A stretch of 64,000 nt of DNA from Methanosuratincola petrocarbonis (GCA_030522375.1 CP130488.1:442-64441); one strand, 5' to 3'. Positions 27,969-45,670 are shown, counted from the first letter of the stretch. Notes: generated by a model not told the origin, from the letters alone. Translations and numbers: made by a program.

Positions 27969-27981
27969 AGGAGTGAGAAAT

Positions 27982-28953: not shown

Positions 28954-28987
28954 TAATTCTATGAGTATACAGAATGGGGAAATTCTA

Positions 28988-30169
28988 ATGGACATTTCAG
29001 TAATAGGCTTAGGAAAAGCAGGGCTGCCTCTTGCTGCAATAATTGCAGACAGTGGCTTTAATGTAACTGGAATAGACCTTGACAGCAAAAAGTGCGAGCT
29101 GATAAACTCTGGTGAAAATCCAATACCCGAAGAACCGGGTCTAGAATCTCTTATAAAAAAATATGGCGGCAAGTCGCTTCGTGCATTTACAGATTACTGT
29201 TCGGCGTCAAATTGTAAGGCATACATAATAATCGTTCCACTTTTCATCAATGAGTTTCGGGAGCCTGACTTCAGGACTCTGAAGGGTGCCGTGAAGAGCG
29301 TAGGAAAGATGCTGAAGAAAGGAGACTTGGTGGTTGTGGAAACCACAGTGCCTCCTCTGACCACAGAGGAACTTGTACTCCGCTGGCTGGAGGAGGAGAG
29401 TGGCATGCATTTAGGCGAATTCTATCTTGCTCACTCGCCAGAAAGAATTATGAGCGGCAATTGCATATCCCGCCTCCGCGAATTTCCGAAGGTTATTGGT
29501 GGCGTTGACAAGAAAAGCGGAATTGTGGCTTTCGAAATGTATAGGAAGTTCATACCAAATCTACATTTAGTCTCCTCGGCTAGGGTGGCTGAGTTCGTAA
29601 AAAATATCGAAGGTTGCTATAGAGATGTAAACATCGCGCTTGCAAATGAACTCTACAAAATAGCCGAAGAGCTGGGCATTGAATTCTACGAATCGCGGGA
29701 GCATGCTAACCACGAGTATTGCCACTTGCTTTTGCCGTCAACGGGCGTAGGGGGGCACTGCATCCCAGTTTATCCTTGGTTTCTGATAAAAGAGATGGAG
29801 CGAAAAGGAAAGGACGAGTTTGCCGACTTGCTCCGGAAATCAAGGGAAATAAACGATAAAATGATTGAATATTGGGCAAATAAAATCGTCATTGCGTGCT
29901 TAAAGATCGATAAACCGTTGAACAAAATCACGATATGCATAAAGGGAATTACTTACCGAAAAGGGGTCAAGGAGCTTTTCCACAGCCGGAACCTGGCACT
30001 CGCAAAACTTTTGGCAGACAAGGGTTTCAGGATCTCCATCTATGACGAAATGTTCACCAGAGAAGAAATTGAAAAGCTTGGCCTTGCATGGGGCGACCCA
30101 GATTTAGCCGACTTGACATTCGATCCATTTGATTTGAAGATTAAACTGAATGCGCAAAAAAATGTATAA
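28988..30169 (+). CDS. UDP-sugar 6-dehydrogenase family protein, a WbpA/WecC-like UDP-N-acetylhexosamine dehydrogenase candidate.
   Basis: The N-terminus MDISVIGLGKAGLPLAAIIADSGFNVTGIDLD is NAD-binding. The catalytic Cys region is STGVGGHCIPVYPWF. An alternative ATG lies at 28961. Confidence 0.75.
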   Translation: MDISVIGLGKAGLPLAAIIADSGFNVTGIDLDSKKCELINSGENPIPEEPGLESLIKKYGGKSLRAFTDYCSASNCKAYIIIVPLFINEFREPDFRTLKGAVKSVGKMLKKGDLVVVETTVPPLTTEELVLRWLEEESGMHLGEFYLAHSPERIMSGNCISRLREFPKVIGGVDKKSGIVAFEMYRKFIPNLHLVSSARVAEFVKNIEGCYRDVNIALANELYKIAEELGIEFYESREHANHEYCHLLLPSTGVGGHCIPVYPWFLIKEMERKGKDEFADLLRKSREINDKMIEYWANKIVIACLKIDKPLNKITICIKGITYRKGVKELFHSRNLALAKLLADKGFRISIYDEMFTREEIEKLGLAWGDPDLADLTFDPFDLKIKLNAQKNV

Positions 30170-30914
30170 AGGTTTCAGAATCGGGGTTTCGGTACCGGCT
30201 TATAACGAAGAAAATTTGATCTTGAAAACTCTCCAAGGGATCCCCAGTTTTGTAGACAAAATCTATGTCGTAGATGATGCCTCAACGGACAGAACCTCCG
30301 AAAAAGTAAAAAACTACGCCGATAGCCGAGTCGTTTTATTGAAACACAGCAGGAATAAGGGGGTAGGCGGTGCCATCGTCACTGCATGGAAGATGGGGTT
30401 GAACGAGGTTGACATTCTTGCAGTGATGGCAGGTGATAACCAGATGGATCCTGGCGATCTTCCTTCTCTCTTGGACCCAATCGTGGAAGGGAAAGTGGAC
30501 TTCACAAAGGGTAACCGGTTTATGAAAAAATATGATTTGAAAATGAGTGCTTGGAGGCGGTTTGGAACAGCGGTTTTGACGGTTTTGAATAAAATAGCGA
30601 CAGGCTATTGGAATATCGGTGACCCCCAAAATGGGTATGTTGCCATTTCTTCCTCCGCACTAAAGAAGATTGATTTAGACGAACTTTACAAGGGATATGC
30701 TTTTGAGAATGACCTGTTGTTGAAGGCTAAGATAGCAGGACTGAGGGTTGTAAGCGTTCCCGTTACGATAAGATACAAAATAGGGGAACAATCGAAAATT
30801 AAATATTCCAAATTCATAGCAAAAATATCTTGGTATATGCTGAGGTCATTCTTATGGCGCATCTATGTCCAGCATTTCAGGAATCTTAAAACTCGGGAAT
30901 ACGATATCATTTAA
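30150..30914 (+). CDS. Family 2 glycosyltransferase (Dpm1-like, polyprenyl-phosphate sugar transferase type).
   Basis: The N-terminus IGVSVPAYNEENLILKTL is followed by VVDDASTDRT (a DxD-type motif) and DAD-like residues. The protein is 254 aa. Confidence 0.75.
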   Translation: MRKKMYKGFRIGVSVPAYNEENLILKTLQGIPSFVDKIYVVDDASTDRTSEKVKNYADSRVVLLKHSRNKGVGGAIVTAWKMGLNEVDILAVMAGDNQMDPGDLPSLLDPIVEGKVDFTKGNRFMKKYDLKMSAWRRFGTAVLTVLNKIATGYWNIGDPQNGYVAISSSALKKIDLDELYKGYAFENDLLLKAKIAGLRVVSVPVTIRYKIGEQSKIKYSKFIAKISWYMLRSFLWRIYVQHFRNLKTREYDII

Positions 30915-30939
30915 AAAATAAAAGCATAATGATCGACCA

Positions 30940-32043
30940 ATGAAACGAATAGCAATCTTTGTGAACACCCCAGCACAGCTGCATTTCTATCGAAACATAG
31001 CCAAGAGGCTTGAGCAAAAAGGAAACCAAGTCAATATGCTGTTCAGGGATTACGGAGAGACTCTGCGATTAGCTCAAGAATTTGGTTTTAATCCACTAAT
31101 CTTCTCAAAACAGCGACCCACTTCGCTACAAAAAATGATTTTTTTCCCAGTCGACATTATGCGTTCGGTTAGGATTTTTCGCGGGCAAAATCCAGATGTC
31201 GTAACAGGATTCGGCATCGACAGCGTATATGCTTCCGCATTTGCTGGATCTAAAAGCATTGTCTTCAGTGATTCCGAGCCTAGATCGCATCGTCTACTGC
31301 ATTTTCAATACGATCTTTTCAAACCCTTAACGGATGTGATTATTACGCCTTCTTCATTCTTGGATGACCTGGGGAGCAAACATATCCGAGTGAACAGCTA
31401 TAAGGAACTCGCCTACTTGCACCCAAATTGCTTTCAACCAAGCAACGACATATTCGATCTCTTGGGCATTTCAAGAAACGAAGACTTCGCTATCCTTAGA
31501 TTCAATGCTTTCGATGCTGTGCACGATCTACAAATCTCAGGCTTCAATTCAGAGCAAAAAGTGAAGCTCGTTGAAACTCTTGACCGTCACGCCCATGTCT
31601 TCGTCTCTGCCGAAGGGAGCGTTCCAAAGCGAATCGAAAAGAACGTCCTCAAAATCCCCAAGAGAAGAATACATGACCTCCTATACTACGCCAAGCTTTT
31701 CGTTACCGATACGCAAACTATGGCTACAGAGGCAGCCATTCTTGGCACGCCCACAATCCGAAGCAACAATTTTGTAGACGAAAAAAGGGAAATGGGTAAC
31801 TTCCTTGAGCTAGAAAAAAAATACGGGCTTCTGTTTAGTATTTGCGATAGAAATAGAGCGATTTCCTTGGCAGAGGAATTGATAAAGTATGATGGTCTGA
31901 AAAAGGAATGGACAAGAAGGCGCGAGGTTTTATTGAAGGATAAAATTGACATTTCGTCGTTCATGACTTGGTTTATCGAAAACTATCCCGAAAGCTGCAA
32001 GGAAATCAAATCCGATTCGAAAATCCAGTTCAAATTCAGGTAA
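30940..32043 (+). CDS. DUF354-family protein, a predicted glycosyltransferase/epimerase-fold enzyme.
   Basis: The N-terminus MKRIAIFVNTPAQLHFYRNIAKRLEQKGNQVNMLFRDYGETLRLAQEFGF matches the DUF354 N-terminal pattern. The 367-aa length also fits. Confidence 0.55.
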   Translation: MKRIAIFVNTPAQLHFYRNIAKRLEQKGNQVNMLFRDYGETLRLAQEFGFNPLIFSKQRPTSLQKMIFFPVDIMRSVRIFRGQNPDVVTGFGIDSVYASAFAGSKSIVFSDSEPRSHRLLHFQYDLFKPLTDVIITPSSFLDDLGSKHIRVNSYKELAYLHPNCFQPSNDIFDLLGISRNEDFAILRFNAFDAVHDLQISGFNSEQKVKLVETLDRHAHVFVSAEGSVPKRIEKNVLKIPKRRIHDLLYYAKLFVTDTQTMATEAAILGTPTIRSNNFVDEKREMGNFLELEKKYGLLFSICDRNRAISLAEELIKYDGLKKEWTRRREVLLKDKIDISSFMTWFIENYPESCKEIKSDSKIQFKFR

Positions 32044-32044
32044 A

Positions 32045-33124
32045 ATGCGGGTTGCGACTGTGGTAGGGGCACGCCCTCAATTCATCAAGATGGCACCCTT
32101 GTCAAGGGAGCTCCGAAAATATTTCGAGGAGATCGTAATACACACAGGTCAGCACTACGATTACGAGATGGACCGCATATTCTTCGAACAGCTAAACATA
32201 CCTCCCCCAGATTACAACCTGGGCGTTGGGTCAGGCTTTCATGGCTACCAAACAGGTGAGATGCTCAAACGAATAGAGGATGTGTTGATAAAGGAAAGCC
32301 CAGATCTGGTCATTGTCTATGGCGACACCAACTCGACGCTGGCAGGTGCCCTTGCGGCCGCGAAGCTTCGAATAAGGGTAGCGCATGTAGAGGCTGGCTT
32401 GAGGTGTTTTGATAGAACGGTTCCTGAGGAAGTAAATAGGGTTCTTACAGATCATATTAGTGATTTGCTATTCGTTCCTACTGAGCGTGCCGTAAAAAAC
32501 CTCTACAACGAGGGAATAAAAAACGGTGTTTATCTGACAGGCGACGTCATGCTTGACGCTTTATTGCATAACATAACAATCGCTGAAAAAGAATCTAAAA
32601 TAATTCAAGAACTTGGCGTTGAGGCGAAATCTTATTTGCTTGTAACAGTTCATAGAGCAGAAAATACTGATAATAGAGCAAGACTTGAAAACATAATTGA
32701 ATGCTTGGTAAAGTGCAAAAGAAAAACAATCTTCCCGATCCATCCGAGGACTAAAGCATTTTTAGAAAAGTATAGCCTGCTTGATAAACTAAAAAACGCG
32801 GATCACATAATCTTGACGAAACCCCTAAGCTATTTTGACATGCTTGTTCTGGAAAAAAACGCAAGACAAATCATAACAGATTCAGGCGGCGTCCAAAAGG
32901 AGGCTTACTCTTTTAAAACGCCATGCATAACTCTTAGAAAAGTGACTGAGTGGCCAGAGACAGTTGAAGACGGGTTGAACATCTTAGTGGGTGATGATTA
33001 CGACCTCTTATTGGATATGATTTGGAAATTTGAGCCAGTCGGCGGGACTTACAGCTTCAGGTTTGGACATGGGGACGCAAGCTCAAGGGTTGTGCAAATT
33101 ATGAAAAATATTTTATGCGCTTGA
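32045..33124 (+). CDS. wecB: UDP-N-acetylglucosamine 2-epimerase, second copy and island paralog of 5450-6523.
   Basis: Motifs MRVATVVGARPQFIKMAPL...HTGQHYDYEMD...NLGVGSGFHG...TNSTLAGALAAAKL are present. SD AGGT lies upstream. Confidence 0.85.
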   Translation: MRVATVVGARPQFIKMAPLSRELRKYFEEIVIHTGQHYDYEMDRIFFEQLNIPPPDYNLGVGSGFHGYQTGEMLKRIEDVLIKESPDLVIVYGDTNSTLAGALAAAKLRIRVAHVEAGLRCFDRTVPEEVNRVLTDHISDLLFVPTERAVKNLYNEGIKNGVYLTGDVMLDALLHNITIAEKESKIIQELGVEAKSYLLVTVHRAENTDNRARLENIIECLVKCKRKTIFPIHPRTKAFLEKYSLLDKLKNADHIILTKPLSYFDMLVLEKNARQIITDSGGVQKEAYSFKTPCITLRKVTEWPETVEDGLNILVGDDYDLLLDMIWKFEPVGGTYSFRFGHGDASSRVVQIMKNILCA

Positions 33125-33305
33125 CTAAGCGTAATTTTATGCGCGCGCAATTGTATGCGATTTGCCAAGATGAAAAGGTTAAAGCTATTGAGTCTCAAAA
33201 TACTTCAGTACTCTATACTCTTTGTGTATAGATTGGTTTTCAAATAAAAATGTTTGATATAAAACTAAACTATGATTATAGTAATAAATAGTAAATAATT
33301 GGAAT

Positions 33306-34511
33306 ATGGGGTGTGTTTATAAAAGCAAAATTATTAAGAAATCTATTTATAATTTATATAATTATGTAAAAAAAGAAAATCATATTGGATTTGATCCTTA
33401 TGATGGCTTAAGCGGAAAAATGCAACGATATTATAATATAAAATATTTAAATATAATTTTATTACAATTTAATTTATATTCATTTGTAAATTTACGAAAA
33501 ATACTTGGCATAAAAAAGGGTTGTGCAAACAAGGCTTTAGCCATTTTTTCAAGATCCTACTTTTTACTATATCTAATTACAAAAGAAAAGGAATTTCTTG
33601 ATAATGCAATTAAATTGTTCGATATTTTAAAGGAAAGAAATCTTTTAAATAATAAAGATAATTATACGTGCTCAAGTCATTATTTTACATACCTTGCACC
33701 AGGCCATTATTTGACCACCTCTGTACCTGACATTATCTGTACCACGGAGTTTGTTAAATCTTCAGTTTTGGCATATGAAGTATTGGGAAAGTCTCAATAC
33801 CTTGAATATGCAGAAAAGGGAATTAATTACTTATTTTACAATTTATTGACTTCAAAAACTGGATATGGTTGTTACTTTAAGTACACTCCATATGAGGAAA
33901 CTAAAATTGTACTGAATGCGTCAGCTGTGGCGCTAGATGCTTTTTCTTATTTTTACAAGCATAGCCAAAATAAGAAATTTTTAGAGCTTGGGAAAAAAGT
34001 TGCAAGAACTCTTCTGCATTACCAGCGTGAAGATGGTGCATGGCCTTATTCTATTTACTTTAAAAATAATTTGCAATATTGGCAGGTCGACTTCCATCAA
34101 GGCTACATTATTGATGGGTTGATACATTTTTTTGATTGCGTGGCAGAATCAGATCTAACCTCAAAAATGAAGACAGCACTAGGAAAAGGAATTGATTTTT
34201 ACTGTCAAAAGCAATACCGAGGCAATGGGACTTTCTATTATAGGTATCCTATTAAGTACCCAATTGACATTCATAATCAAGCGCAAGGCATAATTACATT
34301 TGCCAATCTCTTTGACTTTACTGGAGATTATAAATACTTAGAACTCGCTGAAAGAGTTGCATTATATACTATTGAAAAAATGCAAGATGATGAAGGATAC
34401 TTCTACACGCACAAATATCCTTTATTTACGAATAAAATACCTTACATGCGTTGGGGACAGGCGTGGATGATGTTGGCTTTAACAAATCTTCTAATGGCAC
34501 TAAAAAAATGA
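33306..34511 (+). CDS. Hypothetical protein (401 aa) in the glycan island, possibly a glycan-modifying enzyme. It lies in the lowest-GC part of the island (~27 % GC).
   Basis: The ORF is long, uninterrupted and soluble. No motif could be assigned with confidence. Its context suggests a glycan-related function. Confidence 0.4.
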   Translation: MGCVYKSKIIKKSIYNLYNYVKKENHIGFDPYDGLSGKMQRYYNIKYLNIILLQFNLYSFVNLRKILGIKKGCANKALAIFSRSYFLLYLITKEKEFLDNAIKLFDILKERNLLNNKDNYTCSSHYFTYLAPGHYLTTSVPDIICTTEFVKSSVLAYEVLGKSQYLEYAEKGINYLFYNLLTSKTGYGCYFKYTPYEETKIVLNASAVALDAFSYFYKHSQNKKFLELGKKVARTLLHYQREDGAWPYSIYFKNNLQYWQVDFHQGYIIDGLIHFFDCVAESDLTSKMKTALGKGIDFYCQKQYRGNGTFYYRYPIKYPIDIHNQAQGIITFANLFDFTGDYKYLELAERVALYTIEKMQDDEGYFYTHKYPLFTNKIPYMRWGQAWMMLALTNLLMALKK

Positions 34512-35593
34512 AAGTCTTAATGATCGCACCAATTGGAAAAGCAGGTGGTGTTTCGACTCATTCTCAAGAATTGGTGAGAGAACTTCGGGGTTTAGGGATA
34601 ATGGTTGAAGTCTATAATGTAACGACTTCTATAAAACCAAGATTTATTGCTAATTTTATTAAATTTTATAAAAGAAGTTTCGGGGTCTTCATCAATATTT
34701 TCATTCGTAGGGGTTTTGATATAGTTCATGTACAAGCATCCGGTCCTATGGGTGGTTTCTTGCCTGCAATAAGTGCAGCAATTGTTAGAAAAATCGTAAA
34801 TTTTCCTTTAGTAGTGACTTTTCATTATTCTCGAACATCTGAATTTATTATAAAAAATAAATTTTTTAAATTTGTAATGGAATCATCAAAATTTTTTATT
34901 GTTGTATCTAAAAATCAGAAAAATATCATAATTAATGAAATAAATTATATAGAAAAAGTTAAAGTTATATCAAATGGTTTCAATCCAAAAAATCTTTTCC
35001 CAATTGACTGCATTTTTGCAAGGAAATATTTGAGTCTACCCTATAATAAAAAAGTAATTTTTCATGTTAGTAATCTTCTTCCTGTAAAAGGTCAAAAATA
35101 TTTAATTATAGGAATGAAGAAGATTTTAGAAAAACGCAAAGATGTGCTGCTTTTTATCGGTGGGAAAGGCCCATTAAAACACGAGCTTCAAAAACAAATT
35201 ATCGCACTGAAACTTGAAGATAACATTAAGCTTTTGGGTTTCATTCCAGATGATAAACTGGCACTATGGATGAATGCTGCCGATCTGTTTGTTTTACCTA
35301 GCCTGAGTGAGGGCAACCCCACAGTCATGTTCGAAAGCCTCGGTGTCGGCCTCCCCTTCGTGGGCACAAGGGTCGGCGGAGTGCCTGAGATAATAACCTC
35401 GGACGAATACGGCCTCCTGGCTGAGCCAGGCAACCCCGACGACCTGGCGGAGAAGATATTGGTCGCTCTTGAGAAGGAATGGGACCGTGAGAAGATTCGT
35501 GATTACGCCAGGCAGTTCACTTGGGAAAACATAGCCAAGCAGCTGATTAAAGTGTACGAGGAAGTCCTGAGCAAAAGTCCTTCTGGTGAGTAA
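34508..35593 (+). CDS. Family 4 (GT-B) glycosyltransferase. The last ~100 codons switch to host-like high GC.
   Basis: The ATG overlaps the previous stop (ATGA). A C-terminal EX7E-like region reads SLSEGNPTVMFESLGVGLPFVGTRVGGVPEII. A GC jump occurs near 35290. Confidence 0.75.
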   Translation: MKVLMIAPIGKAGGVSTHSQELVRELRGLGIMVEVYNVTTSIKPRFIANFIKFYKRSFGVFINIFIRRGFDIVHVQASGPMGGFLPAISAAIVRKIVNFPLVVTFHYSRTSEFIIKNKFFKFVMESSKFFIVVSKNQKNIIINEINYIEKVKVISNGFNPKNLFPIDCIFARKYLSLPYNKKVIFHVSNLLPVKGQKYLIIGMKKILEKRKDVLLFIGGKGPLKHELQKQIIALKLEDNIKLLGFIPDDKLALWMNAADLFVLPSLSEGNPTVMFESLGVGLPFVGTRVGGVPEIITSDEYGLLAEPGNPDDLAEKILVALEKEWDREKIRDYARQFTWENIAKQLIKVYEEVLSKSPSGE

Positions 35594-36290
35594 GATGCTC
35601 TTTATATCGAAAAAAGCAAAGGTGTCAGGGTCAATCGAGGGGGAAGCAGTGGTATTGGGCCCCTCCGAGGTGGGCGGTGGATCCGTGATAGGGAACAACG
35701 TGGTCATCGGCTATCCCATCCGTAGAAAGATCCTCCAGGTGCCCAATGCATCGTTTCTGGAGTACGACGCCGCAAGTTCTGGCGCAAAGGTAGGTCCCCG
35801 CTGCATAGTCAGATCCAACTCCACGATATACGAAGGCTCTTCGCTTGAGGAGGCGGTTGAGCTCGGGCACGGAGTCCTTGTGAGGGAAAAATGCGAGATC
35901 GGCGCAGGAGCTAGGATAGGGACTTTTGCTGTAGTCGACGGGAGCGTCTGCATTGGGAGCAGGTGCAGCATCCAGACTGGAGTCTACTTGCCGCCCGGTA
36001 CTGTGGTTGGCTCCGATGTGTTCATGGGTCCTTACGTGACCGTGACCAACGACCGATACCCTCCTTCGCCGAAGACCTCCGGAGTTGTGATCGAGAGCGG
36101 CGCCGTGATAGGGAGCCGTGCCGTCCTGATCGCCGGGATCCGTGTTGGCTCCGGAGCTGTTGTAGGGGCGGGCGCTGTGGTGACGAGGGATGTGCCCCCG
36201 GGCGACGTAGTTCTGGGCGTACCCGCGAGGAGGGTAATGGGAAGGGACGAATATGACAGGAAGCAAAAGGACTTCGTTTCCTTAAAGTAG
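35586..36290 (+). CDS. Left-handed beta-helix (hexapeptide-repeat) acyltransferase, a WbpD/PglD-like sugar N-acetyltransferase candidate.
   Basis: Repeated [LIV]G-x4 hexapeptides occur (VIGNNVVIG, RIGTFAVVDGSVCIGSRCSI, VIGSRAVLIAGIRVGSGAVVGAGAVV). The gene is high GC. Confidence 0.75.
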   Translation: MSKMLFISKKAKVSGSIEGEAVVLGPSEVGGGSVIGNNVVIGYPIRRKILQVPNASFLEYDAASSGAKVGPRCIVRSNSTIYEGSSLEEAVELGHGVLVREKCEIGAGARIGTFAVVDGSVCIGSRCSIQTGVYLPPGTVVGSDVFMGPYVTVTNDRYPPSPKTSGVVIESGAVIGSRAVLIAGIRVGSGAVVGAGAVVTRDVPPGDVVLGVPARRVMGRDEYDRKQKDFVSLK

Positions 36291-36305
36291 CAGGGTGGAA
36301 TTCGT

Positions 36306-37406
36306 ATGATACCGATAAACAAGCCGATTCTGGGGAAGGAAGAGATCGAGGCTGTCGCGAAGGTGATCGAGAGCGGCGCCCTCACCAACCCCGCCCCCGA
36401 GGGGGGGTCAGTCTGCAGGGCGTTCGAGCAGGAGCTTGCCTCTTACTGCAATGCGAAGCACGCTGTCGCATGCAACTCCGGTACCGCCGCGCTCCAGATG
36501 GCGCTTATGGCTGCTGGAGTCGGTCCAGGGGACGAGGTGATCGTCCCGTCCTTCACATTCGTGGCGACCGCAAGCTCCGTGCTCCTGGTTGGCGCCAGGC
36601 CGGTCTTTGTCGACATCGATCCGGATACATACAATATGGACCCAGAGCAATTCAGGAGGGCGATCACCCCGAGGACGAAGGCAGTGGTCCCCGTTGACCT
36701 GTACGGGCTGCCCGCTGCCATGGACGAGATAAAAGAGATCGCCCGCCAAAGTGGCATAATTGTCATAGAGGATGCCTGCCAGGCGCAAGGGGCTTCCTAC
36801 AAGGGCAAGATGGCGGGGACGCTTGGGGACATGGGGTGCTTCAGCTTCTACCCCGGGAAGGTAATGACTACGGGGGAGGGCGGGGCTGTGATCACGGACG
36901 ACGATGAGCTGGCAGAGCGCCTCCGCAGGATTAGGACCCACGGGCAGGTCAAGGGTTACGACTCCGTGATGCTCGGGGGAAACTTCAGGATGACCGAGAT
37001 GGCGGCTGCGATAGGCAGAGTCCAGCTAAAGCGCCTCCCGGGCTTCCTCTCTGTTAGGGAAAAGAACGCGGCGCAGCTTCTGGAGCTGCTTGATGGATCG
37101 AGCCTAAAACTGCCTGAGGTGCCTGGTAGATACAAGCACAACTGGTATTTGTTCACCGTAAAATGCAAAACAAATAAAGAAAGAGAATCCCTAAAATCCT
37201 CGCTGCTCGAGGCGGGTTTTGGAGTTGCCGTCTACTATCCAATTCCGTTGCACAAAATTCCTTTATTTAATGATTATTCGGATGATTTTATCAAAACTGC
37301 TGAACGCTGTTCTGAAGATGTTCTTTCGTTGCCAGTTAATCCTGCAGTTAGTTATGATGATATTATTAATATGGTTAATATAGTAAAATTTAAAGTAATA
37401 TTGTAA
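36306..37406 (+). CDS. DegT/DnrJ/EryC1/StrS-family PLP-dependent sugar aminotransferase (WbpE-like). The 3' ~250 nt revert to AT-rich composition.
   Basis: Family motifs are MIPINKPILGKEEIEAVAKVIESGAL and FSFYPGKVMTTGEGGAV. A PLP lysine context is present. SD GGGTGGA lies upstream. Confidence 0.8.
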   Translation: MIPINKPILGKEEIEAVAKVIESGALTNPAPEGGSVCRAFEQELASYCNAKHAVACNSGTAALQMALMAAGVGPGDEVIVPSFTFVATASSVLLVGARPVFVDIDPDTYNMDPEQFRRAITPRTKAVVPVDLYGLPAAMDEIKEIARQSGIIVIEDACQAQGASYKGKMAGTLGDMGCFSFYPGKVMTTGEGGAVITDDDELAERLRRIRTHGQVKGYDSVMLGGNFRMTEMAAAIGRVQLKRLPGFLSVREKNAAQLLELLDGSSLKLPEVPGRYKHNWYLFTVKCKTNKERESLKSSLLEAGFGVAVYYPIPLHKIPLFNDYSDDFIKTAERCSEDVLSLPVNPAVSYDDIINMVNIVKFKVIL

Positions 37407-37428
37407 TAAAAATTTTTAATTAATAAAT

Positions 37429-39163
37429 ATGAAAAATAGAATTTTATACTTATACATATTAATTAGTTGTACATTTATATTCTTCATTTATGAATCAACT
37501 TTTTTACCACAAAAGTTACCCACTCATGTCTTCTATTTAATTGCCATAATACTTTCATTATCTATTGTTTTATTTGCATTCTTTTCAAAAAATATAATTG
37601 GTTATGTGCTTACAATTTCTTTTATTTCTTTTTTAATAAAAGAAGCATTTTTATCTGTGGTCCCTCCATCAATTATTTCTTTATATTTAGATAATTATGT
37701 TATCTACCAAGTTGCAAATGGTATCGCTACTTATTCTCGTATCCCTCCTATAGATTATTACTCTAATGCTGCAATTTTTGTTGCAAAGCAACCTGTGGCC
37801 CCCGTATTCTCTGTTATTTTTTCAGGGATAACTGGCGTTCCATTAGAATTAAGTCTAAGACATTTAGGCTGCGTTATTGGAGGATTGATTATTCCTATTG
37901 TGATTTGTCTCCTTTATAACCCGCTGGAAAAACAATTTGGTTATCAGTCTTTCAAATTTAGTCACTTGTCTCTATTATTTTCTCCTTGGATAGTTTTCTT
38001 TTTGATATGGGGTCACTATTCAATTTATAGTATCACATATTTTGCAATTATGAGTTTTATAATATTAAGGTATCTCATTATAGAAAGAAGAATTGGTGTA
38101 GGATGCATAATTTTATGGTCAATAACCTCCATTGCGATTTCATTTGCGCATGTTTATTTATCTGTTATTGCATTAGCAATTTTTGGGTTGACGCTGTTTT
38201 GCTTTATTATATTATTGTATGGTGCGAATTACACGAGAAGATTTTTTAACCTTTTATGTATTTATTCGATCAACCTAATCATATATGTTTTGTTTTTTTT
38301 TTGAGGAAACTATAACTTCAATACTGTTTAGTTTAGCATTACTTTTTGAAGCAATAGTTATCGGAGACCCGTCTCGGGGAATCAACTTCTACTTTGCGGG
38401 TGGAGGAATTGAGGTGCCGTTTTATGTTAGGTTTTTGAGATGGGCTGGGGCAATTTCTTGGGCTTTATTGACAGCATTTTCTTTTATTTTGCTCTTAAGA
38501 AAATACCGAAATTCGAGAAAATTTTTAGCATACATAATGTATCTTAGTGTAGGCACGATAGGGTTTATTACTGCTCTACCCTATATTTTGGATCCAAAAT
38601 ATGGAACAGATCTGTTTAATCGATCTCTTTATTTCTTTGGTCTAATGTGTGCAGCCCCGTTTGTAGGTTTTATTTCCAAACATTTTTCAGGAAAATTGAA
38701 GAAAGTAATATATTTCATATTTTTAACTCTGATTATAAATTTTGGAATCACAATGACTCCTGTTGATTTCCAAAGCTGGAATTATCCCATAAGAGGTGGA
38801 GAAGACATTCGTCTTTATCCATCTGAGTGGGCGGCAGCAGGCACATTTACATTAAATTATGCTGATAGCTTGAGTTCGGCCTGCGGTCTTAGGCAAGGTT
38901 TGTCAACAATTGGTTATTTTAGTAGGATAAATTACTATGAAATACAACCGTCTGCCTCAAATCAACTTGTTTTTATTCCACCAGATGAATGGGATGAACT
39001 AAAAAATTATTGGACGGATTGTTGCTTTTTAAGAAAAAGTATTACAAAATACGAGGAAGTGCCGGGATATGTGGTTCAAAATTCTACATTTGATGAGCTG
39101 ATTAGTTCTGTCAAAATTGTTTATACTTGCACTGATGTGTTTATGATTTATTATAGAAATTAA
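37429..39163 (+). CDS. Polytopic membrane protein with ~9-11 TM segments and a C-terminal soluble domain, GT-C-like glycosyltransferase or polymerase candidate. It is split into ORFs 37429-38304 and 38285-39163 by a +1 frameshift in a T10 run (38293-38302).
   Basis: Removing one T fuses the frames to give ...YVLFFFEETITSILFSL.... Both halves are very AT-rich and hydrophobic. A GT-C-like architecture is inferred from the TM domain plus periplasmic-type C-terminal domain. Confidence 0.5.
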
Positions 39164-39164
39164 T

Positions 39165-40277
39165 ATGAAGATTCTTATTATTGGTAATAACATTTCTAAG
39201 CCTTACTTGGGTCCTTCAGCAGTTTTAAACAACACATTAAAAGGTTTTTATAAAATAGATAAAAAACTTGAAAAATATGGTATAAAACTAACTTTTATGT
39301 CAATAAATGAAAATGTTGACAAACTGCTTAGTGAAAATATTAAAATAGTGGGCGTGAAGAGATATCGCTATCCTTTTGTTACTGTCACATATGAAATTCA
39401 GTCTTTATTGTTTTCTCCAAAAGAAAAATTTAATGCCGTTCACTCGCATATATTGTATGAGATTTTTCCTTGGATAATTAAGTTTCCAACATTTTTTACA
39501 CTTCATGGAATTTTTTGGAAAGAAAAGAAATATATGAATAATAAATTTTTATCCGAATATTCAAATTTAGTAAACACTCTAAGACTTACTTTTTACTCTA
39601 GTCATATTGCTGCACTTGTAGCAGTTTCTCCATATGTTATTGAAGAGCTCGAAGCGATGGGATTTGATATCAAAAAGGCGGTAGTGATAGAAAATCCTGT
39701 TTCGGACGAGTTCTTCGAAATAGAGAAAGAACAAGACGATATGATCCTATATCCTGCAGCCCTAAATGCAAGAAAGAACCAACTTGGCTTCCTTAAGGCT
39801 TTCGCTTCAGTTAAGAATGAGCTTAAAGGGTACAAGTTAGTTTTTACAGGCTCCGGGGATTCCGGTTATTATGCAACGCTCAGGCATTTCGCGGAAAAGC
39901 ATGGCTTGAATGCAGCGTTCCTCGGTAAAGTCCCCTATAAAGAAATGGTGCGCCTTTACTCCAGAGCTTCCTTCGTGGCCTTAACTTCATTCCAGGAGAC
40001 GCTCCCAATGGCGGTTCTTGAATCCCTGGCATCCGGCACTCCCGTTCTCGCCTCGCGGGTCGGAGGCTTGCCCTACGTCATCGAAGATAACATTAACGGT
40101 CTTCTAGTGAATCCGTTCAACCATCTAGAAATAGCGGAGAAAATTATCGCTTTGACAGACAAGAGTCTTCGCGAAAAATTGGCTGCAAATGCTAAAAGAA
40201 CTGCCGAAAAATACAGAAGTGATGTGGTCGCAAAAAAGCTTCTTGAATTGTATCTAACTAGAGTAAATATGTATTAA
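39165..40277 (+). CDS. Family 4 glycosyltransferase. Its C-terminal 213 aa are identical to the next gene.
   Basis: The GT-B C-terminal domain reads ...FTGSGDSGYYATLRHFAEKHGLNAAFLGKVPY...ETLPMAVLESLASGTPVLASRVGGLPYVIEDNINGLLV. The N-terminal domain is diverged from that of 40280-41377. Confidence 0.75.
   Translation: MKILIIGNNISKPYLGPSAVLNNTLKGFYKIDKKLEKYGIKLTFMSINENVDKLLSENIKIVGVKRYRYPFVTVTYEIQSLLFSPKEKFNAVHSHILYEIFPWIIKFPTFFTLHGIFWKEKKYMNNKFLSEYSNLVNTLRLTFYSSHIAALVAVSPYVIEELEAMGFDIKKAVVIENPVSDEFFEIEKEQDDMILYPAALNARKNQLGFLKAFASVKNELKGYKLVFTGSGDSGYYATLRHFAEKHGLNAAFLGKVPYKEMVRLYSRASFVALTSFQETLPMAVLESLASGTPVLASRVGGLPYVIEDNINGLLVNPFNHLEIAEKIIALTDKSLREKLAANAKRTAEKYRSDVVAKKLLELYLTRVNMY
39615..40253 (+). 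repeat. Copy 1 of a perfect ~639-bp direct repeat (copy 2 at 40724-41362).
   Basis: Nucleotide-for-nucleotide identity was checked by eye across the whole segment. The antisense track ORFs 39602-39835 and 40705-40944 are near-identical over the shared segment. Confidence 0.9.
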
Positions 40278-40279
40278 AT

Positions 40280-41377
40280 ATGACGATTCTTATAATAGGG
40301 TCAAAAATTTCTAACCCTTATCTTGGTCCTTCAACAGTCCTTAGCAATACTTTGAAGGGATTTTTAAAAATCCAGAAAGAACTTGAGAAATATGGTGTTA
40401 AAATAACTTTTCTATCACTTAATGACAATATTAATAAAAAATTTTCAAAATATATCCGAGTAATCAGCTATAGAACTTACCCTCCAATTACCTTTACAGG
40501 GGAACTCCAAGCAGTGGTTAACAAATCTAAAGAGACGTTCGATATAGTACACGCTCACGGGATTTACGACCTTTTTCCATACATCTTTTCTAATACGCCA
40601 ACCATTTTTACCCTTCATGGAATCTTTTGGAAAGAGATCTTTTTCAAAAGCAAACTGTACTCAAAACTATACCTAAAGCTTGGGGAGTTGCGACTGAGGT
40701 TTTATTACCCAAAGATTACAAGGTTTGTAGCAGTTTCTCCATATGTTATTGAAGAGCTCGAAGCGATGGGATTTGATATCAAAAAGGCGGTAGTGATAGA
40801 AAATCCTGTTTCGGACGAGTTCTTCGAAATAGAGAAAGAACAAGACGATATGATCCTATATCCTGCAGCCCTAAATGCAAGAAAGAACCAACTTGGCTTC
40901 CTTAAGGCTTTCGCTTCAGTTAAGAATGAGCTTAAAGGGTACAAGTTAGTTTTTACAGGCTCCGGGGATTCCGGTTATTATGCAACGCTCAGGCATTTCG
41001 CGGAAAAGCATGGCTTGAATGCAGCGTTCCTCGGTAAAGTCCCCTATAAAGAAATGGTGCGCCTTTACTCCAGAGCTTCCTTCGTGGCCTTAACTTCATT
41101 CCAGGAGACGCTCCCAATGGCGGTTCTTGAATCCCTGGCATCCGGCACTCCCGTTCTCGCCTCGCGGGTCGGAGGCTTGCCCTACGTCATCGAAGATAAC
41201 ATTAACGGTCTTCTAGTGAATCCGTTCAACCATCTAGAAATAGCGGAGAAAATTATCGCTTTGACAGACAAGAGTCTTCGCGAAAAATTGGCTGCAAATG
41301 CTAAAAGAACTGCCGAAAAATACAGAAGTGATGTGGTCGCAAAAAAGCTTCTTGAATTGTATCTTTCCTGCGGTTGA
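40280..41377 (+). CDS. Family 4 glycosyltransferase, tandem paralog with an identical C-terminal half.
   Basis: The same C-terminal GT-B domain is present. The N-terminus MTILIIGSKISNPYLGPSTVLSNTLKGF is ~65-70 % identical to MKILIIGNNISKPYLGPSAVLNNTLKGF. Confidence 0.75.
   Translation: MTILIIGSKISNPYLGPSTVLSNTLKGFLKIQKELEKYGVKITFLSLNDNINKKFSKYIRVISYRTYPPITFTGELQAVVNKSKETFDIVHAHGIYDLFPYIFSNTPTIFTLHGIFWKEIFFKSKLYSKLYLKLGELRLRFYYPKITRFVAVSPYVIEELEAMGFDIKKAVVIENPVSDEFFEIEKEQDDMILYPAALNARKNQLGFLKAFASVKNELKGYKLVFTGSGDSGYYATLRHFAEKHGLNAAFLGKVPYKEMVRLYSRASFVALTSFQETLPMAVLESLASGTPVLASRVGGLPYVIEDNINGLLVNPFNHLEIAEKIIALTDKSLREKLAANAKRTAEKYRSDVVAKKLLELYLSCG
40724..41362 (+). repeat. Copy 2 of the perfect ~639-bp direct repeat.
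   Basis: Identical to 39615-40253; the offset is 1109 bp. Confidence 0.9.
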
Positions 41378-41893
41378 ATTTAGCCACTTCCGTTCCACTA
41401 GTCTATTTTCCTTTAAGTTAAAAATCCGAATTACATCAATATAGAATGCCTAGTTTTGGTGTGATTTGACATTTAATGTGACATAACATCTTCCTTGGAG
41501 AAAAGTTTTCAGCCGCAAAGACTAAGAAATCGTTCCCCCTCCTTTGAATCTGGAATTCCTTTTTATGTAAAGCTTGGATGAACCACTCAGTTTAGGCATT
41601 GGCTTTACTTGGGTATTAGATGCGCCCCCTTCGTCTAGCGAACTATTTTTCGGGATCGAAAGAACAGCTAGGAAAATCAATCAAAACGAAAGATAAGGTG
41701 CCAATGTATGAAATCATCTGCAGTTCGTGGATGCGGTGTTGAGAACTTGGCAACTATCTCGAAACGCACATTTCCACTCGGAACGAAATCAGGGGCATGG
41801 ACGGATCAAATCACATCTGTAGGATCGAATTTACTTTAGAGGCATCGGTTATAAAGCCCGGCCCACAAAACCTTCTGCAATCAGGTGCCCGCG

Positions 41894-42646
41894 AATGAAA
41901 CGCCTGGACCGGAGGGAGAGGAACCGCCTGAAGGGCGAGCGCTTCGAGGAGCTCGTCGAGCTTCTCTTCAGGTCGATGGGTACGCCACGAAGATGAAGAC
42001 CGGCGACAACTTCGTCCAGACAAAGGACTTCGACAAGTTGCAGATCGACATCATCGCCGAGAAGCCAGGCGACAGGGTGCTGGTCGAGTGCAAGAACTAC
42101 TCCCTTTACCCGATCTCGCAGAAGGAAATCCACTACTTCTACTCCGCCCTGGAGGCCGCCGGCAGCGGCTAGAGGGGCGTCTACGTCACGTGGAACGCCT
42201 ATGAGGATCCAGTAAAGAGGAACGCGCATGGCAAGCCGATCGATCTCTGGTACATGTCGACGCTGATGGAGCACGCGAAGCGCAACCCGGAGTTCTTCAA
42301 GGACCTTTTGTCACTCTCCGCCGACGGGCTGGTCGAGCGGTACCGCAACGACCATGCCTTCATCGACACGGTCCTGACACTCGCCGCTGGCAGGGACCCC
42401 CGCTTCGAGGCGCTGAGCCAGACCGAGGAGGAGCTGCCCGCCCCCGAGAACTTCAGCAAGGAGGGCTGGAGGAAGGCGGTCGAATTCGAGGCGTATTGCA
42501 GGGGCCTCTTCAGCAGGAAGTACTTCGAGATAGTGATGTACACGAAGGACCTCCAGGGCGAGGGTGCGGAGAGCGTGGACCGCCTCTACTACCCGGACTA
42601 CGTAATCGAGTATAAGCCGACCAGGGAGAGGTTCAGCGTCGAGTGA
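41894..42646 (+). pseudogene. Decayed Mrr-like (PD-(D/E)xK) restriction endonuclease-domain gene. It has a -1 frameshift near 41975 and an in-frame TAG at 42170-42172.
   Basis: Frame 1 reads MKRLDRRERNRLKGERFEELVELLFRSMG..., an Mrr_cat N-terminus. After the shift the sequence reads YATKMKTGDNFVQTKDFDKLQIDIIAEKPGDRVLVECKNYS, a PD-DxK core. After the TAG stop the same frame continues RGVYVTWNAYEDPV... into ORF 42254-42646. Confidence 0.55.
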
Positions 42647-42661
42647 AAATACCGATCGAAC

Positions 42662-42913
42662 ATGCCAGAAGACGATTCGTCCATCGAATGGACCAGCCAG
42701 AGGCGACTCGAGCAGTACCTGGAGTTCTCAGAGAAGGAGGATTTCCCGCTCTTCGTCGTGATCGGGGTCGGCGGGACGCCCTCTTCCCCGGAGCGGATGT
42801 TCTGCCTGCCCCTCGACGAGGCGGACTCGCCGACAATCGACGCCTGCGTCTACCTCAACAGGGAGCGCGACCCTGCAAAGATGTTCTATTGGAAAGACGG
42901 GTGCCTTGAGTGA
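42662..42913 (+). CDS. Hypothetical small protein, possibly a remnant of the same decayed locus.
   Basis: The ORF is 83 aa and its composition resembles the neighbouring degraded gene. No motif was recognised. Confidence 0.2.
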   Translation: MPEDDSSIEWTSQRRLEQYLEFSEKEDFPLFVVIGVGGTPSSPERMFCLPLDEADSPTIDACVYLNRERDPAKMFYWKDGCLE

Positions 42914-43125
42914 GGACGCCTCGAGGAGAGCAGTTACTGCTGGACTCTTGTGCCTAACAACGGTCTATGCCTGACCAAAAAAGGCTCATAAATCCATGTA
43001 ATACAAACCTCCCAAAGAATCAGCCAACTTCAGTGCTCAATCCTCCCTTGCATTTTCAATACCGCGCAAGGCGCCAACTTTCATATATACTCTAAACCAC
43101 TACTTTGATCCGAGGAGTGCCCCAA

Positions 43126-44184: not shown

Positions 44185-44213
44185 TAATTTACTGTTGGCG
44201 GGCTGGTTCTCTG

Positions 44214-45152: not shown

Positions 45153-45656
45153 ATGCTTCCTGGCATCGTTGTGAAGCCCCTCAGCCGGCATGTGGACGAG
45201 CGGGGAAACTTTACAGAGATCTTCCGATCGGACATGAAGGATATCTTGGGAGACGACACAATCGTCCAGTCGAACCTCTCCTATTCCTACCCGGGCGTGA
45301 AGAGGGCCTGGCACAGGCACGAGCGGGGTCAGGTCGACTACTTCGTCTGCATAGGTGGGGCAATAAAGATCTGCGCTTACGACGACGCGACCGCCGAGCT
45401 CGACGAGATCGTCTCCTCCGCAGCTTCCCTCCAGGTCGTGAGGATCCCGGGTCATTACTGGCACGGCTTCAAGGTGGTGGGGAGCGAGCCAGCCACGCTG
45501 GTCTACTTCACGACCAGGCTCTACGACTACAAGTCGCCTGACGAGCTGAGGCGCCCTTGGGATGACCCGACCGTTGTCCCGAAGTCGATAAACGGGAAGG
45601 TCAACGACCCCCGCGTCGGGAAGCCCTGGGACTGGGACTTCGTTCTGTACAAGTGA
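45153..45656 (+). CDS. rmlC: dTDP-4-dehydrorhamnose 3,5-epimerase (cupin).
   Basis: The protein is 167 aa. It carries the motif DERGNFTEIFR, a His-containing active-site region (WHRHE) and RIPGHYWHGF. Confidence 0.8.
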   Translation: MLPGIVVKPLSRHVDERGNFTEIFRSDMKDILGDDTIVQSNLSYSYPGVKRAWHRHERGQVDYFVCIGGAIKICAYDDATAELDEIVSSAASLQVVRIPGHYWHGFKVVGSEPATLVYFTTRLYDYKSPDELRRPWDDPTVVPKSINGKVNDPRVGKPWDWDFVLYK

Positions 45657-45670
45657 CGGGCGTGAGTCGC

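Follow-up and report, generated by a model that had tools for sequence, protein, structure and literature searches.

The 64,000-nt stretch of Methanosuratincola petrocarbonis DNA analysed here (the window) carries an island of sharply varying base composition (Table 1), whose chromosomal site is fixed and lies just past a MoxR/DUF58 operon. Predicted products of the island include all five types of enzyme in the WbpA/B/E/D/I route to UDP-2,3-diacetamido-2,3-dideoxy-uronic acid, alongside glycosyltransferases and a large membrane protein. Between host flanks of 61% and 56% GC, it comprises an upstream block (27973-33124, 42.5% GC), cassette 1 (33125-35269, 30.2%), a core (35270-37253, 57.6%) and cassette 2 (37254-41377, 35.2%).

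Table 1. Genes, gene parts and motifs of the island, in window coordinates.
Feature	Position (nt)	Strand	Remarks
WbpB-like oxidoreductase	27973-28953	+	Upstream block; Pfam/NCBIfam
WbpA-like UDP-sugar 6-dehydrogenase	28946-30169	+	Upstream block; Pfam/NCBIfam
GT2	30150-30914	+	Upstream block; Pfam/NCBIfam
DUF354	30940-32043	+	Upstream block; Pfam/NCBIfam
WecB/WbpI-like 2-epimerase	32045-33124	+	Upstream block; Pfam/NCBIfam
Cassette 1, gene 1: 401-aa protein	33306-34511	+	Weak GH88/C5-epimerase-like matches only; GC 31%, GC3 0.26
Cassette 1, gene 2, 5' part: GT4 residues 1-254	34508-35269	+	AT-rich, GC3 0.22
Core part 1: GT4 residues 255-361 (last 107 codons)	35270-35593	+	Starts at MNAADLFVLPSLS; GC3 0.60
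EX7E motif EGNPTVMFE (GT4 residues 268-276)	35309-35335	+	Within core part 1
Core part 2: WbpD/WlbB/QdtC-type hexapeptide-repeat sugar N-acetyltransferase, 234 aa	35586-36290	+	Pfam Hexapep; GC 58%, GC3 0.66
Core part 3: WbpE-type DegT aminotransferase residues 1-316	36306-37253	+	Pfam DegT_DnrJ_EryC1 7e-121; GC3 0.73-0.76
YYPIPLH motif of the DegT gene	37233-37253	+	End of core part 3
Cassette 2 start: last 50 codons of the DegT gene	37254-37406	+	AT-rich (GC3 0.14), allele-specific
Cassette 2: ~577-aa membrane protein	37429-39163	+	~13 hydrophobic segments; no family match (Pfam, NCBIfam)
Cassette 2: tandem GT4 glycosyltransferases	39165-40277 and 40280-41377	+	Pfam; GC 37-41%

The enzyme assignments differ in depth. 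The WbpA-like protein contains UDPG_MGDP_dh domains and reaches 305 bits with the NCBIfam NDP-sugar dehydrogenase subfamily model (cut-off 190); its scores with the UDP-ManNAc dehydrogenase and TviB equivalog models lie below cut-off. For the WbpB-like protein, which matches Pfam GFO_IDH_MocA, the best NCBIfam model is NF040723 (archaeal UDP-GlcNAc 3-dehydrogenase) with 176 bits versus a cut-off of 450. The 2-epimerase matches Pfam Epimerase_2 at 4e-108 and the wecB equivalog TIGR00236 with 367 bits (cut-off 210), its putative substrate being UDP-GlcNAc or the diNAc-uronate. The WbpD/WlbB-type and WbpE-type genes are neighbours, separated by 16 nt, and fit the pathway at the family level only. 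Closest to the acetyltransferase among solved structures are QdtC (3fs8, 1e-32) and WlbB (3mqg, 7e-18); the DegT protein matches WbpE (3nu7) at 4e-75, its top structural match being another sugar aminotransferase, 7b0d. The GT4 protein that spans the border of cassette 1 and core has all parts of its class (GT-B fold), namely an N-domain (PF13439, Glyco_transf_4, residues 13-160), a C-domain (PF00534, Glycos_transf_1, residues 175-336) and the EX7E motif, in a frame that is intact over the junction. Pfam and NCBIfam searches of the island returned no recognisable Wzx, Wzy or Wzz, and the sole candidate for a flippase- or polymerase-like export role is the ~577-aa membrane protein. Its gene is read as two open reading frames in the window, where a T10 run stands at 38293 (T9 in the isolate LCB70).

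An earlier, sequence-only reading of this DNA had described a GC-rich segment inside an AT-rich island with both edges within genes, and the steps in GC and in GC3 confirm this. In the GT4 gene GC3 is 0.22 up to nt 35286 versus 0.60 beyond (Fisher p=8e-12), and in the DegT gene 0.76 up to nt 37144 versus 0.43 beyond (p=3e-8), a highly significant codon-level discontinuity in both cases. Maximum-likelihood change points fall at nt 35300 (codon 264, 2dlnL=66) and nt 37158 (codon 284, 2dlnL=69), and the breaks originally placed at 35290 and 37150 were accurate. Compared with host genes in the 64-kb window (GC3 0.77 ± 0.07, n=24), the DegT body is host-like, the acetyltransferase slightly below and the GT4 C-part intermediate. 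Relative synonymous codon usage (RSCU) follows the same blocks: correlated against host genes, the core and its DegT body give r=0.88, the acetyltransferase 0.72, the upstream block 0.04 and the AT-rich cassettes -0.55 to -0.68. The acetyltransferase gene, previously called GC-rich throughout, is so as a whole, but its first ~20 codons are lower (0.43-0.46).

The compositional steps coincide closely with breaks in homology to the related loci, which carry L numbers below. Nucleotide homology to Ca. Methanosuratincola subterraneus (L005) and to L006 starts exactly at 35270, abutting MNAADLFVLPSLSE-x7-E in the GT4 EX7E region, and ends at ~37254, just past the DegT motif YYPIPLH; after 37254-37264, identity to L005 is ~55%. 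The AT-rich DegT end had been put at ~80 codons; it is present, but because of this 3' junction the replaced tail amounts to ~50. GC drops ~100 nt before the junction owing to a Lys-rich stretch common to all alleles. At the protein level, GT4 residues 1-259 are 29% and residues 260-361 97% identical to L005. The N-part is 100% identical to L007 and L001 and 29% identical to L005 and L006, and the C-part is 71% identical to L006. DegT residues 1-319 are ~96% identical to L005 versus 40% for the last 47 residues; the corresponding values for L006 are 84% and 38%, and the tails of L005 and L006 share only 40% with one another. For the proteins P0002 and P0003 the body identities are 96% and 84%, respectively. 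Separate trees of the two GT4 halves, which the sequence-only reading had called for, are incongruent with 100% bootstrap on each side: in the C-part tree the window, L007, L001 and L005 form one clade, whereas in the N-part tree the window type groups with Thermococcales/Archaeoglobaceae-like proteins and L005 and L006 form a separate clade. Both reading frames run intact through the joins. Intragenic recombination breakpoints and two chimeric enzymes had been postulated and are borne out by these identities; judged by sequence, the GT4 and DegT genes are true natural chimeras.

Comparison of close strains visualizes the modular build of the island. Over 16.1 kb the window and Ca. Methanosuratincola verstraetei LCB70 share 98.99% identity, and in L001-L005 and L007, as in the window, the island lies downstream of the DUF58 gene. 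Its downstream flank is common to the window and L007 until 42405 and to L001 and L007 past this point. Alignment with M. subterraneus L004 gives 99.06% identity over the upstream block, nothing alignable at 33292-35270, 92.9% overall at 35270-37463 (98-100% in the central portion) and nothing downstream; conserved modules and non-homologous cassettes thus alternate as 99%/no homology/93%/no homology. Upstream-block identity is 69% to L006 and only ~65% to L001 across WbpB/A. The cassettes differ in content from strain to strain. In place of the 401-aa GH88-like protein, M. subterraneus and L006 encode an Asn-synthase-like amidotransferase. The ~577-aa membrane protein shares only 24-25% identity with its positional counterparts in L005 and L006 (573/574 aa). 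The tandem GT4s are 98% identical to those of L007 and have a single-copy counterpart in L001, and L004 and L006 carry a different GT4 in reverse orientation. The acetyltransferase is 99% identical in L004, 70% in L006 and 60-64% in L032, L033, L035 and L038.

In all relatives sampled, including L006 at only ~70% nucleotide identity, the GC-rich block is found at the same place, and the mosaic is therefore old and shared rather than an event in this genome. In L006 the GC steps fall at the same codons (GC3 0.24/0.49 for GT4 N/C, 0.66/0.30 for DegT body/tail). In L032 and L033 the acetyltransferase-aminotransferase pair is GC-elevated amid AT-rich neighbours, and GC3 falls at the DegT 3' end. 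Across L032, L033, L035 and L038, WbpD/E are 60-71% identical to those of the window, the WbpA-like proteins 34-38% and the WbpB-like proteins 30-33% (54% in L032). The pair is not GC-elevated in one congener (L009/L035, Methanosuratincola/Methanosuratus sp.; GC3 0.38-0.48, host ~0.7), and host GC therefore does not always follow long residence. In the window and L006 alike the upstream block is still at ~43% GC although its nucleotide sequence has diverged by ~31%, which calls for repeated import or selection and weakens simple amelioration arguments. Metagenome-assembled genomes (MAGs) may contain chimeric sequences, and GC steps as abrupt as these would be expected if reads of two organisms, one high and one low in GC, had been misassembled or misbinned. 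However, the same joins recur in the complete genome of the culture-derived isolate LCB70, in three separate Logan runs, in an NCBI MAG and an independent Logan assembly of another run, in a diverged relative and in a JGI contig that spans the GT4 C-part, acetyltransferase and aminotransferase; the frames are intact. For this reason, we dismiss an assembly artefact as practically negligible.

Recombination has also acted within the modules. Among four close alleles the core has 117 variable sites whose patterns come in runs, 89 of 116 adjacent pairs being alike compared with 24 ± 4 after shuffling (p<=1e-5). In L001 a window-type cassette changes at 35287 to a core edge of the L005 type; the WbpB/A alleles of L001 are divergent as well, and a further junction lies within DUF354, at ~31270-31300. 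Together with ~33292, 35270 and ~37254, this places several junctions inside the cluster. Exchange among strains appears from these sequence patterns to be ongoing.

On this basis, we favour, with a probability of roughly 65%, the reading that the GC-rich block is a resident core, belonging to a WbpD/WbpE-type pathway, that has escaped replacement and around which imported, exchangeable cassettes are set. Strains that are otherwise ~99% identical differ in the AT-rich cassettes, not in the block. Relatives of the block lie in the host lineage: all named DegT relatives are Methanomethylicia or other Thermoproteota (Methanosuratus, Methanomethylicus, Methanomethylicaceae, then Bathyarchaeia), and, going by such named database hits, the core seems to track the host phylogeny. 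Relatives of the flanking genes are Archaeoglobi- or Thermococcales-like, with Archaeoglobaceae, Pyrococcus and Thermococcus as the best named matches of the GT4 (55-59%) and Ferroglobus, Archaeoglobus, Methanophagales and Syntrophoarchaeum as the nearest named relatives of WbpA outside the genus (64-67%). The core would be long resident at the locus, and both of its sides would have been replaced repeatedly by AT-rich versions from low-GC archaea, upstream by a sugar-modifying gene with the N-terminal 254 residues of GT4, and downstream by the DegT tail with the membrane protein and further GT4s. The original joins may have arisen where diverged homologous genes crossed over in their best-conserved motifs, the GT4 EX7E region and DegT YYPIPLH. 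Such crossovers inside both genes would explain the chimeras, and swapping of the flanking cassettes in this way would be the reason why the ~2-kb stretch of host codon usage begins and ends within genes. Core and 43% GC upstream block would now serve as shared homology for homologous recombination, by which strains may swap whole cassettes and short conversion tracts. This would generate different glycan types, and surface diversification is a putative selective reason.

The direction of exchange is most likely the reverse of that first suggested, in which a wholly AT-rich island was imported and GT4-3', acetyltransferase and aminotransferase-5' were overwritten by gene conversion from resident host-GC paralogues elsewhere in the chromosome. 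Host codon usage and host-like GC3, ends at conserved motifs that would allow diverged paralogues to pair, and short conversion tracts in the block would all suit such an origin. Yet the search for a high-identity donor yielded no second DegT or acetyltransferase copy in the 64-kb window and a single locus in the complete LCB70 genome, in a scan limited to specific peptide patterns, which by our estimate would overlook a 90%-identical copy with a probability of ~3%. Within a collection of 5.8 billion proteins, every DegT at least 80% identical to that of the window maps to this island, the next best reaching 71%; furthermore, a resident WbpD/E pair lacking a resident WbpA/B would have no substrate. 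As the block is present in a relative at ~70% identity, any paralogue conversion would be ancient and its donor since lost. With the mosaic common to relatives and no donor found in these searches, we hold this origin to be quite improbable.

Recombination is symmetrical, and the moving piece is not directly observable; the data also fit a Methanosuratincola-type GC-rich module that spreads between strains and species by homologous recombination, crossing at the GT4 and DegT motifs and overwriting vertically held AT-rich clusters. The window and L005 share a near-identical block between unrelated flanks, the same junctions are found again beside three cassette sets (window type, L005, L006), the one at the DegT 3' end also in L032 and L033, and tracts from several alleles are pieced together in the block. 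None of the sampled alleles has a GT4 gene or a DegT tail that is GC-rich throughout, which speaks against the resident-core reading, as it predicts such unrecombined ancestral genes. What makes spreading of the module unlikely, although worth keeping in view, is that window and L006 have diverged to a similar degree in the block (71% nucleotide identity) and the upstream block (69%), which fits co-divergence and not recent spread, that non-host phylogenetic affinities belong to the flanks, and that strains with 99%-identical surroundings differ in cassettes alone. A process rather than ancestry might also have shaped the composition, either GC-biased gene conversion in the shared segment that recombines most often or selection that keeps variable glycan genes AT-rich, for instance to hold expression low, with the two sugar-nucleotide enzymes conforming to host usage. 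In its favour, the block is demonstrably a hot zone of recombination, the upstream block has not drifted to host GC, and the acetyltransferase-aminotransferase pair is GC-elevated over its neighbours in several independent contexts. We consider this very improbable: the GC steps lie within a few tens of nt of the homology and phylogeny breaks, as mosaic ancestry predicts and a gene-by-gene process does not, the upstream block is also shared homology (99% to L004) yet has 43% GC, and the cassettes have non-host relatives.

The reading of a resident core can be extended, although we regard the extension as speculative and rather unlikely to hold in full. The GT4 EX7E and DegT YYPIPLH junctions could be recurrent crossover hot spots and the host-GC core a plug-in socket, into which cassettes from distant archaea (Archaeoglobi, Thermococcales), each a sugar-modifying enzyme with its matching GT4 N-part and downstream assembly genes, would be captured, to be exchanged among Methanosuratincola strains; frequent recombination in the socket, possibly with GC-biased conversion, would help to keep GC high. 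If true, functional hybrid glycosyltransferases with new specificities would result.

Mosaic genes of comparable design are known from the penicillin-binding proteins of Streptococcus and Neisseria, which arose by interspecies homologous recombination, consist of blocks differing by ~5-25% in nucleotide sequence and were selected for drug resistance. Here too, recombination with diverged homologues has placed blocks of very different divergence in one intact frame, but for the swapped GT4 part protein identity is down to 29%, and this part travels with a neighbouring gene. With the Wbp/Wlb pathway to UDP-ManNAc3NAcA (Pseudomonas aeruginosa WbpA/B/E/D/I, Bordetella pertussis WlbA-D, Thermus thermophilus; PMC10622841) the island shares the five enzyme types. 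It differs in that the matches are at family level, only WecB passing its NCBIfam equivalog cut-off, and that the genes are distributed over two blocks which differ in composition and origin.

Bacterial O-antigen and capsule loci (Salmonella, Yersinia pseudotuberculosis, Streptococcus pneumoniae, Acinetobacter) have shared regions around a divergent centre and junctions inside the cluster (PMC5399914, PMC7305143). Like these, the island occupies a fixed chromosomal site with atypically low GC, combines conserved nucleotide-sugar genes with variable glycosyltransferase and membrane-protein genes, and exchanges variants by homologous recombination in shared sequence within the cluster. In contrast to them, it belongs to an archaeon (a Thermoproteota methanogen), it yielded no recognisable Wzx/Wzy/Wzz, and its shared host-GC anchor lies in the middle rather than at the edges, with both boundaries inside genes at family motifs, giving chimeric enzymes. 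Among archaea, the S-layer N-glycosylation (agl) clusters of Haloferax show strain variation, horizontal transfer and within-gene recombination in glycosyltransferase genes, discussed in terms of 'serotype'-like surface diversity and virus pressure (PMC5867893). Both are archaeal surface-glycan clusters that vary between close strains, but phylum and chemistry differ, the route here being that to a Wbp-type di-N-acetylated uronic acid. Moreover, the Haloferax events are mostly within clades, whereas the parts joined here differ by ~70% at the protein level and ~30 GC points, a far more extreme chimerism. We therefore regard the island as a clean archaeal example of a mosaic surface-glycan locus, a pattern already well known in bacteria.

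The surface-glycan island, in which every gene lies on the plus strand, stands out by its base composition. At 1-kb resolution GC content is 53-68% as far as 27.9 kb and 30-45% at 28-41.4 kb, save for 49-61% at 35-37 kb; at 100-nt resolution it rises from ~0.38 to 0.60 across 35250-35350, falls from 0.60 to 0.40 across 37050-37150 and reaches 0.11-0.29 by 37350. The step is borne by third codon positions. Split at nt 35286, the GT4 gene has GC3 of 0.22 in its 5' part and 0.60 in its 3' part (Fisher p=8e-12); split at nt 37144, the aminotransferase gene has 0.76 and 0.43 (p=3e-8). Host genes in the window average 0.77 +/- 0.07 (24 ORFs). Maximum-likelihood GC3 change points at nt 35300 and nt 37158, together with the GC values of the blocks (see table), show that the breakpoints and percentages of the sequence-only reading were accurate. 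Amino-acid composition was rejected as the source of the enrichment, as the signal sits in GC3 and RSCU; GC2 is also raised in the block, with its Gly-rich hexapeptide repeats. Amino-acid content accounts solely for one feature: the 3' GC drop sets in early, ~100 nt ahead of the junction, owing to a Lys-rich stretch that every allele has. Minus-strand ORFs in 35.2-36.9 kb were set aside as the spurious ORFs usual in GC-rich coding DNA.

Blocks, genes and runs of variable sites in the island (window coordinates)
Feature	Position (nt)	Strand	Composition, basis or pattern
Surface-glycan island	27973-41377	+	
Upstream block	27973-33124		42.5% GC
AT-rich block before core	33125-35269		30.2% GC
Core block	35270-37253		57.6% GC
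AT-rich block after core	37254-41377		35.2% GC
GFO_IDH_MocA oxidoreductase	island	+	family match
UDP-sugar 6-dehydrogenase	island	+	family match
GT2	island	+	family match
DUF354 protein	30940-32043	+	family match
WecB-type 2-epimerase	island	+	family match
401-aa protein	33306-34511	+	weak GH88 / C5-epimerase-like matches
GT4	34508-35593	+	Pfam Glycos_transf_1 at residues 175-336
Hexapeptide-repeat acetyltransferase	island, core block	+	family match
DegT-family aminotransferase	36306-37406	+	family match
Membrane-protein gene, two ORFs	37429-38304 and 38285-39163	+	no family match
Two tandem GT4s	39165-41377	+	family match
Run of variable sites	35287-35337		window = L007, unlike L001 = L005
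Run of variable sites	36708-36836		17 sites, L007 only
Run of variable sites	36965-37055		window only
Run of variable sites	37101-37247		L005 only

Exact-sequence look-ups of the window's DegT aminotransferase and GT4 found no record, and genomic context was therefore taken from near-identical relatives. The nearest aminotransferases are Logan proteins (98%), then Ca. Methanosuratincola subterraneus (88%), followed by Methanosuratus, Methanomethylicus and Methanomethylicaceae (61-71%). A reference-genome scan found Ca. M. verstraetei LCB70 (L007), a complete genome to which 26313-42405 aligns at 98.99% over 16.1 kb; Methanosuratincola genomes measure about 1.5 Mb, and G+C is 54.4% in M. petrocarbonis, the type species (PMC12244365). 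In related genomes the island occupies the same site, after a MoxR/DUF58 operon. A metagenome scan with the acetyltransferase yielded only three useful loci, two of them short, and confirmed the join of the GT4 C-terminal part to the WbpD-like and WbpE-like genes. Beyond the island, the LCB70 alignment skips from 42405 to 46885, leaving a ~4.5-kb host-GC segment (sugar-1-phosphate nucleotidyltransferase, 43105-44184; RmlD-like reductase, 44214-45152; neighbouring genes) without a counterpart at this position; strains thus differ in a further part of the locus, this time at host GC.

Against the NCBI assembly of M. subterraneus (L004), identity is 99.06% over 26715-33292, nucleotide homology is absent over 33292-35270, and identity resumes at 92.9% over 35270-37463, downstream of which nothing aligns. 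Resolved into 60-nt windows, it jumps from at most 0.58 to 0.87-1.00 at 35286, holds at 0.92-1.00 to 37083 and at 0.83-0.90 to 37263, and then drops to about 0.55. L006, a much more distant relative, can be aligned in two places only, the upstream block and the GC-rich block, with about 69-71% identity in each. At all compared loci the GC-rich stretch has the same position: GC3 of the GT4 N-part, GT4 C-part, aminotransferase body and aminotransferase tail is 0.21, 0.64, 0.70 and 0.25 in L005, an independent Logan assembly of the M. subterraneus sequence type, and 0.24, 0.49, 0.66 and 0.30 in L006. The mosaic is therefore old and shared; the same stretch at the same place in relatives excludes both an event in this genome and an assembly artefact.

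Both the GT4 and the aminotransferase are chimeras. Residues 1-259 of the GT4 are 29% and residues 260-361 are 97% identical to the M. subterraneus allele, and the respective values for L006 are 29% and 71%. Neighbour-joining trees, built separately for the two parts as the sequence-only reading had proposed, are incongruent: in that of the N-part, the window type lies amid Thermococcales/Archaeoglobaceae-like proteins and L005 and L006 stand apart as their own clade (100% bootstrap), whereas for the C-part the window, LCB70, the close allele L001 and L005 form a single clade (100% bootstrap). Identity of the aminotransferase to its M. subterraneus counterpart is 96% for residues 1-279 and 95% for residues 280-319; in the final 47 residues it is 40%, a value not above that of arbitrary family members. 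With 50 residues, a tree of this tail is too short to decide (support 40-63%); its replacement is supported by the contrast of 96% with 40% identity and by the fall-off at the nucleotide level. The alternative that a fast-evolving tail, or purifying selection acting on the C-part of the GT4, mimics chimerism was rejected because the contrast is nucleotide and synonymous (98-100% versus unalignable) and the strains' neighbouring genes are 99% identical. Identity contrasts and GT4 tree incongruence thus support the earlier proposal of recombination that created chimeric enzymes.

Nucleotide homology among all alleles starts with the MNAADLFVLPSLSEGNPTVMFE codons, whose first base is nt 35270; this stretch includes the GT4 EX7E motif (residues 268-276). 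Homology to L005 stops directly past the YYPIPLH codons (nt 37233-37253). The 5' break lies within the C-terminal Rossmann domain and not in the inter-domain linker; its site tracks sequence conservation rather than domain architecture. A break so placed would be expected from crossover between diverged homologous genes.

Recombination in the block is ongoing. Its 117 variable sites among the four close alleles are clustered in same-pattern runs (see table), and 89 of the 116 adjacent pairs share a pattern, compared with 24 +/- 4 after shuffling. L001 carries the window-type cassette upstream of the core, 100% identical up to 35285, and an L005-type block edge from 35287. Its WbpB/A alleles are 59% and 65% identical to those of the window at the protein level, a further junction lies within the DUF354 gene near 31270-31300 (nucleotide identity 50-70% to 80-90%), and the remainder of its island is 97-99% identical. 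Relative to L004, the cassette-side edges of the block are 83-90% and its centre 98-100% identical, as is expected if cassette swaps resolve within the shared block.

Which part is resident was judged from codon usage, named relatives and copy number. The correlation of codon usage with that of host genes is r=0.88 for 35288-37253 as a whole, 0.88 for the body of the aminotransferase and 0.72 for the acetyltransferase; it is -0.55 to -0.68 for the AT-rich cassettes and 0.04 for the 43% GC upstream block. The aminotransferase's named relatives all belong to the host class or phylum. The best named GT4 relatives are from Archaeoglobaceae, Pyrococcus and Thermococcus (55-59%), and the nearest named to the upstream dehydrogenase are from Ferroglobus, Archaeoglobus, Methanophagales and Syntrophoarchaeum (64-67%). 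An acetyltransferase-aminotransferase pair with 60-71% identity to that of the window also occurs at four more distant loci, whose WbpA-like genes are only 34-38% and WbpB-like genes 30-33% identical to those of the window (54% for WbpB at one locus, L032); in L032 and L033 the pair is GC-elevated amid AT-rich neighbours and aminotransferase GC3 drops at the 3' end. No second copy of either gene occurs within the window, a pattern-limited scan of the complete LCB70 genome returned a single locus, and the protein collection has no aminotransferase at 80% identity or more outside this island.

Together, these observations are best explained if the GC-rich block is what remains un-replaced of a resident pathway, its core, and if the flanks are imported, exchangeable DNA. 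This reverses the direction given in the sequence-only reading, in which a resident paralogue had overwritten part of an imported island, and the copy-number results leave such paralogue conversion unsupported. Some room is left for a reading of the block as a mobile module, and for biased conversion or selection contributing in part: none of the sampled alleles is GC-rich throughout its GT4 or throughout its aminotransferase tail, the pair in the congener L009/L035 lacks GC elevation, and the upstream block has kept about 43% GC over about 31% divergence. In five Methanomethylicia/Methanomethylicota relatives (L008, L010, L011, L012, L030) the whole loci are AT-rich, with 28-36% GC over ~20 kb, so that possible donors of AT-rich cassettes do exist among low-GC representatives of this class; none of their DegT genes adjoins a WbpD-like gene.

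Among solved structures, the aminotransferase matches WbpE (3nu7, 4e-75), and the acetyltransferase matches QdtC (1e-32) and WlbB (7e-18). UDP-ManNAc3NAcA is made by a five-enzyme set in P. aeruginosa, B. pertussis and T. thermophilus (PMC10622841); from family-level assignments, the dehydrogenase, oxidase, aminotransferase, acetyltransferase and epimerase of the island would constitute this set, with UDP-ManNAc3NAcA as the predicted product. The cassette before the core occurs in two forms, one with the GH88 / glucuronyl-C5-epimerase-like protein (window 33306-34511, LCB70, L001), the other with an Asn-synthase-like amidotransferase (L005 6537-8090; L006 5287-6927), and each enzyme travels with its own GT4 N-terminal part. 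Speculatively, these forms hint at uronate C5-epimerised versus amidated glycan variants. The GT4 of L004 is annotated in two pieces of 39 and 173 aa (8606-9288), whereas that of L005 is intact at 413 aa (8047-9288), pointing to a frameshift, or an error of assembly, within the AT-rich N-part of L004 or L005. Past the core, a poly-T at 38293 (T10 in the window, T9 in LCB70) splits the 37429-39163 gene (~577 aa, ~13 hydrophobic segments, without a family match) into overlapping ORFs; possible explanations of this indel are a sequencing error, a pseudogene or homopolymer-based on/off switching of a glycan-assembly gene. The tandem GT4s resemble a duplication: GT4c is 78% and GT4b 98.6% identical to the single L001 copy, and window 40277-40438 is 75% identical to the start of that copy.

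The surface-glycan locus of these recently cultured Thermoproteota methanogens is thus a strain-variable mosaic, which may account partly for strain differences in Methanosuratincola virus susceptibility or cell aggregation. It holds unusually clean natural chimeras: the GT4 spanning the 5' junction has a constant EX7E-containing C-terminal third and N-terminal two-thirds only 29% identical between alleles, and could inform glycosyltransferase engineering. Composition-based island calling would split the locus and misassign its foreign part. Divergent blocks between shared regions, with junctions inside the cluster, are known from bacterial surface-polysaccharide loci (PMC5399914, PMC7305143), and within-gene recombination in archaeal glycosylation genes from Haloferax (PMC5867893). 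Like bacterial O-antigen and capsule loci, the Methanosuratincola locus is a strain-variable mosaic from homologous recombination with intragenic junctions; it has its host-GC anchor mid-island, with both anchor boundaries intragenic, and is an unusually clear further case of a mosaic surface-polysaccharide locus, in a Thermoproteota methanogen.
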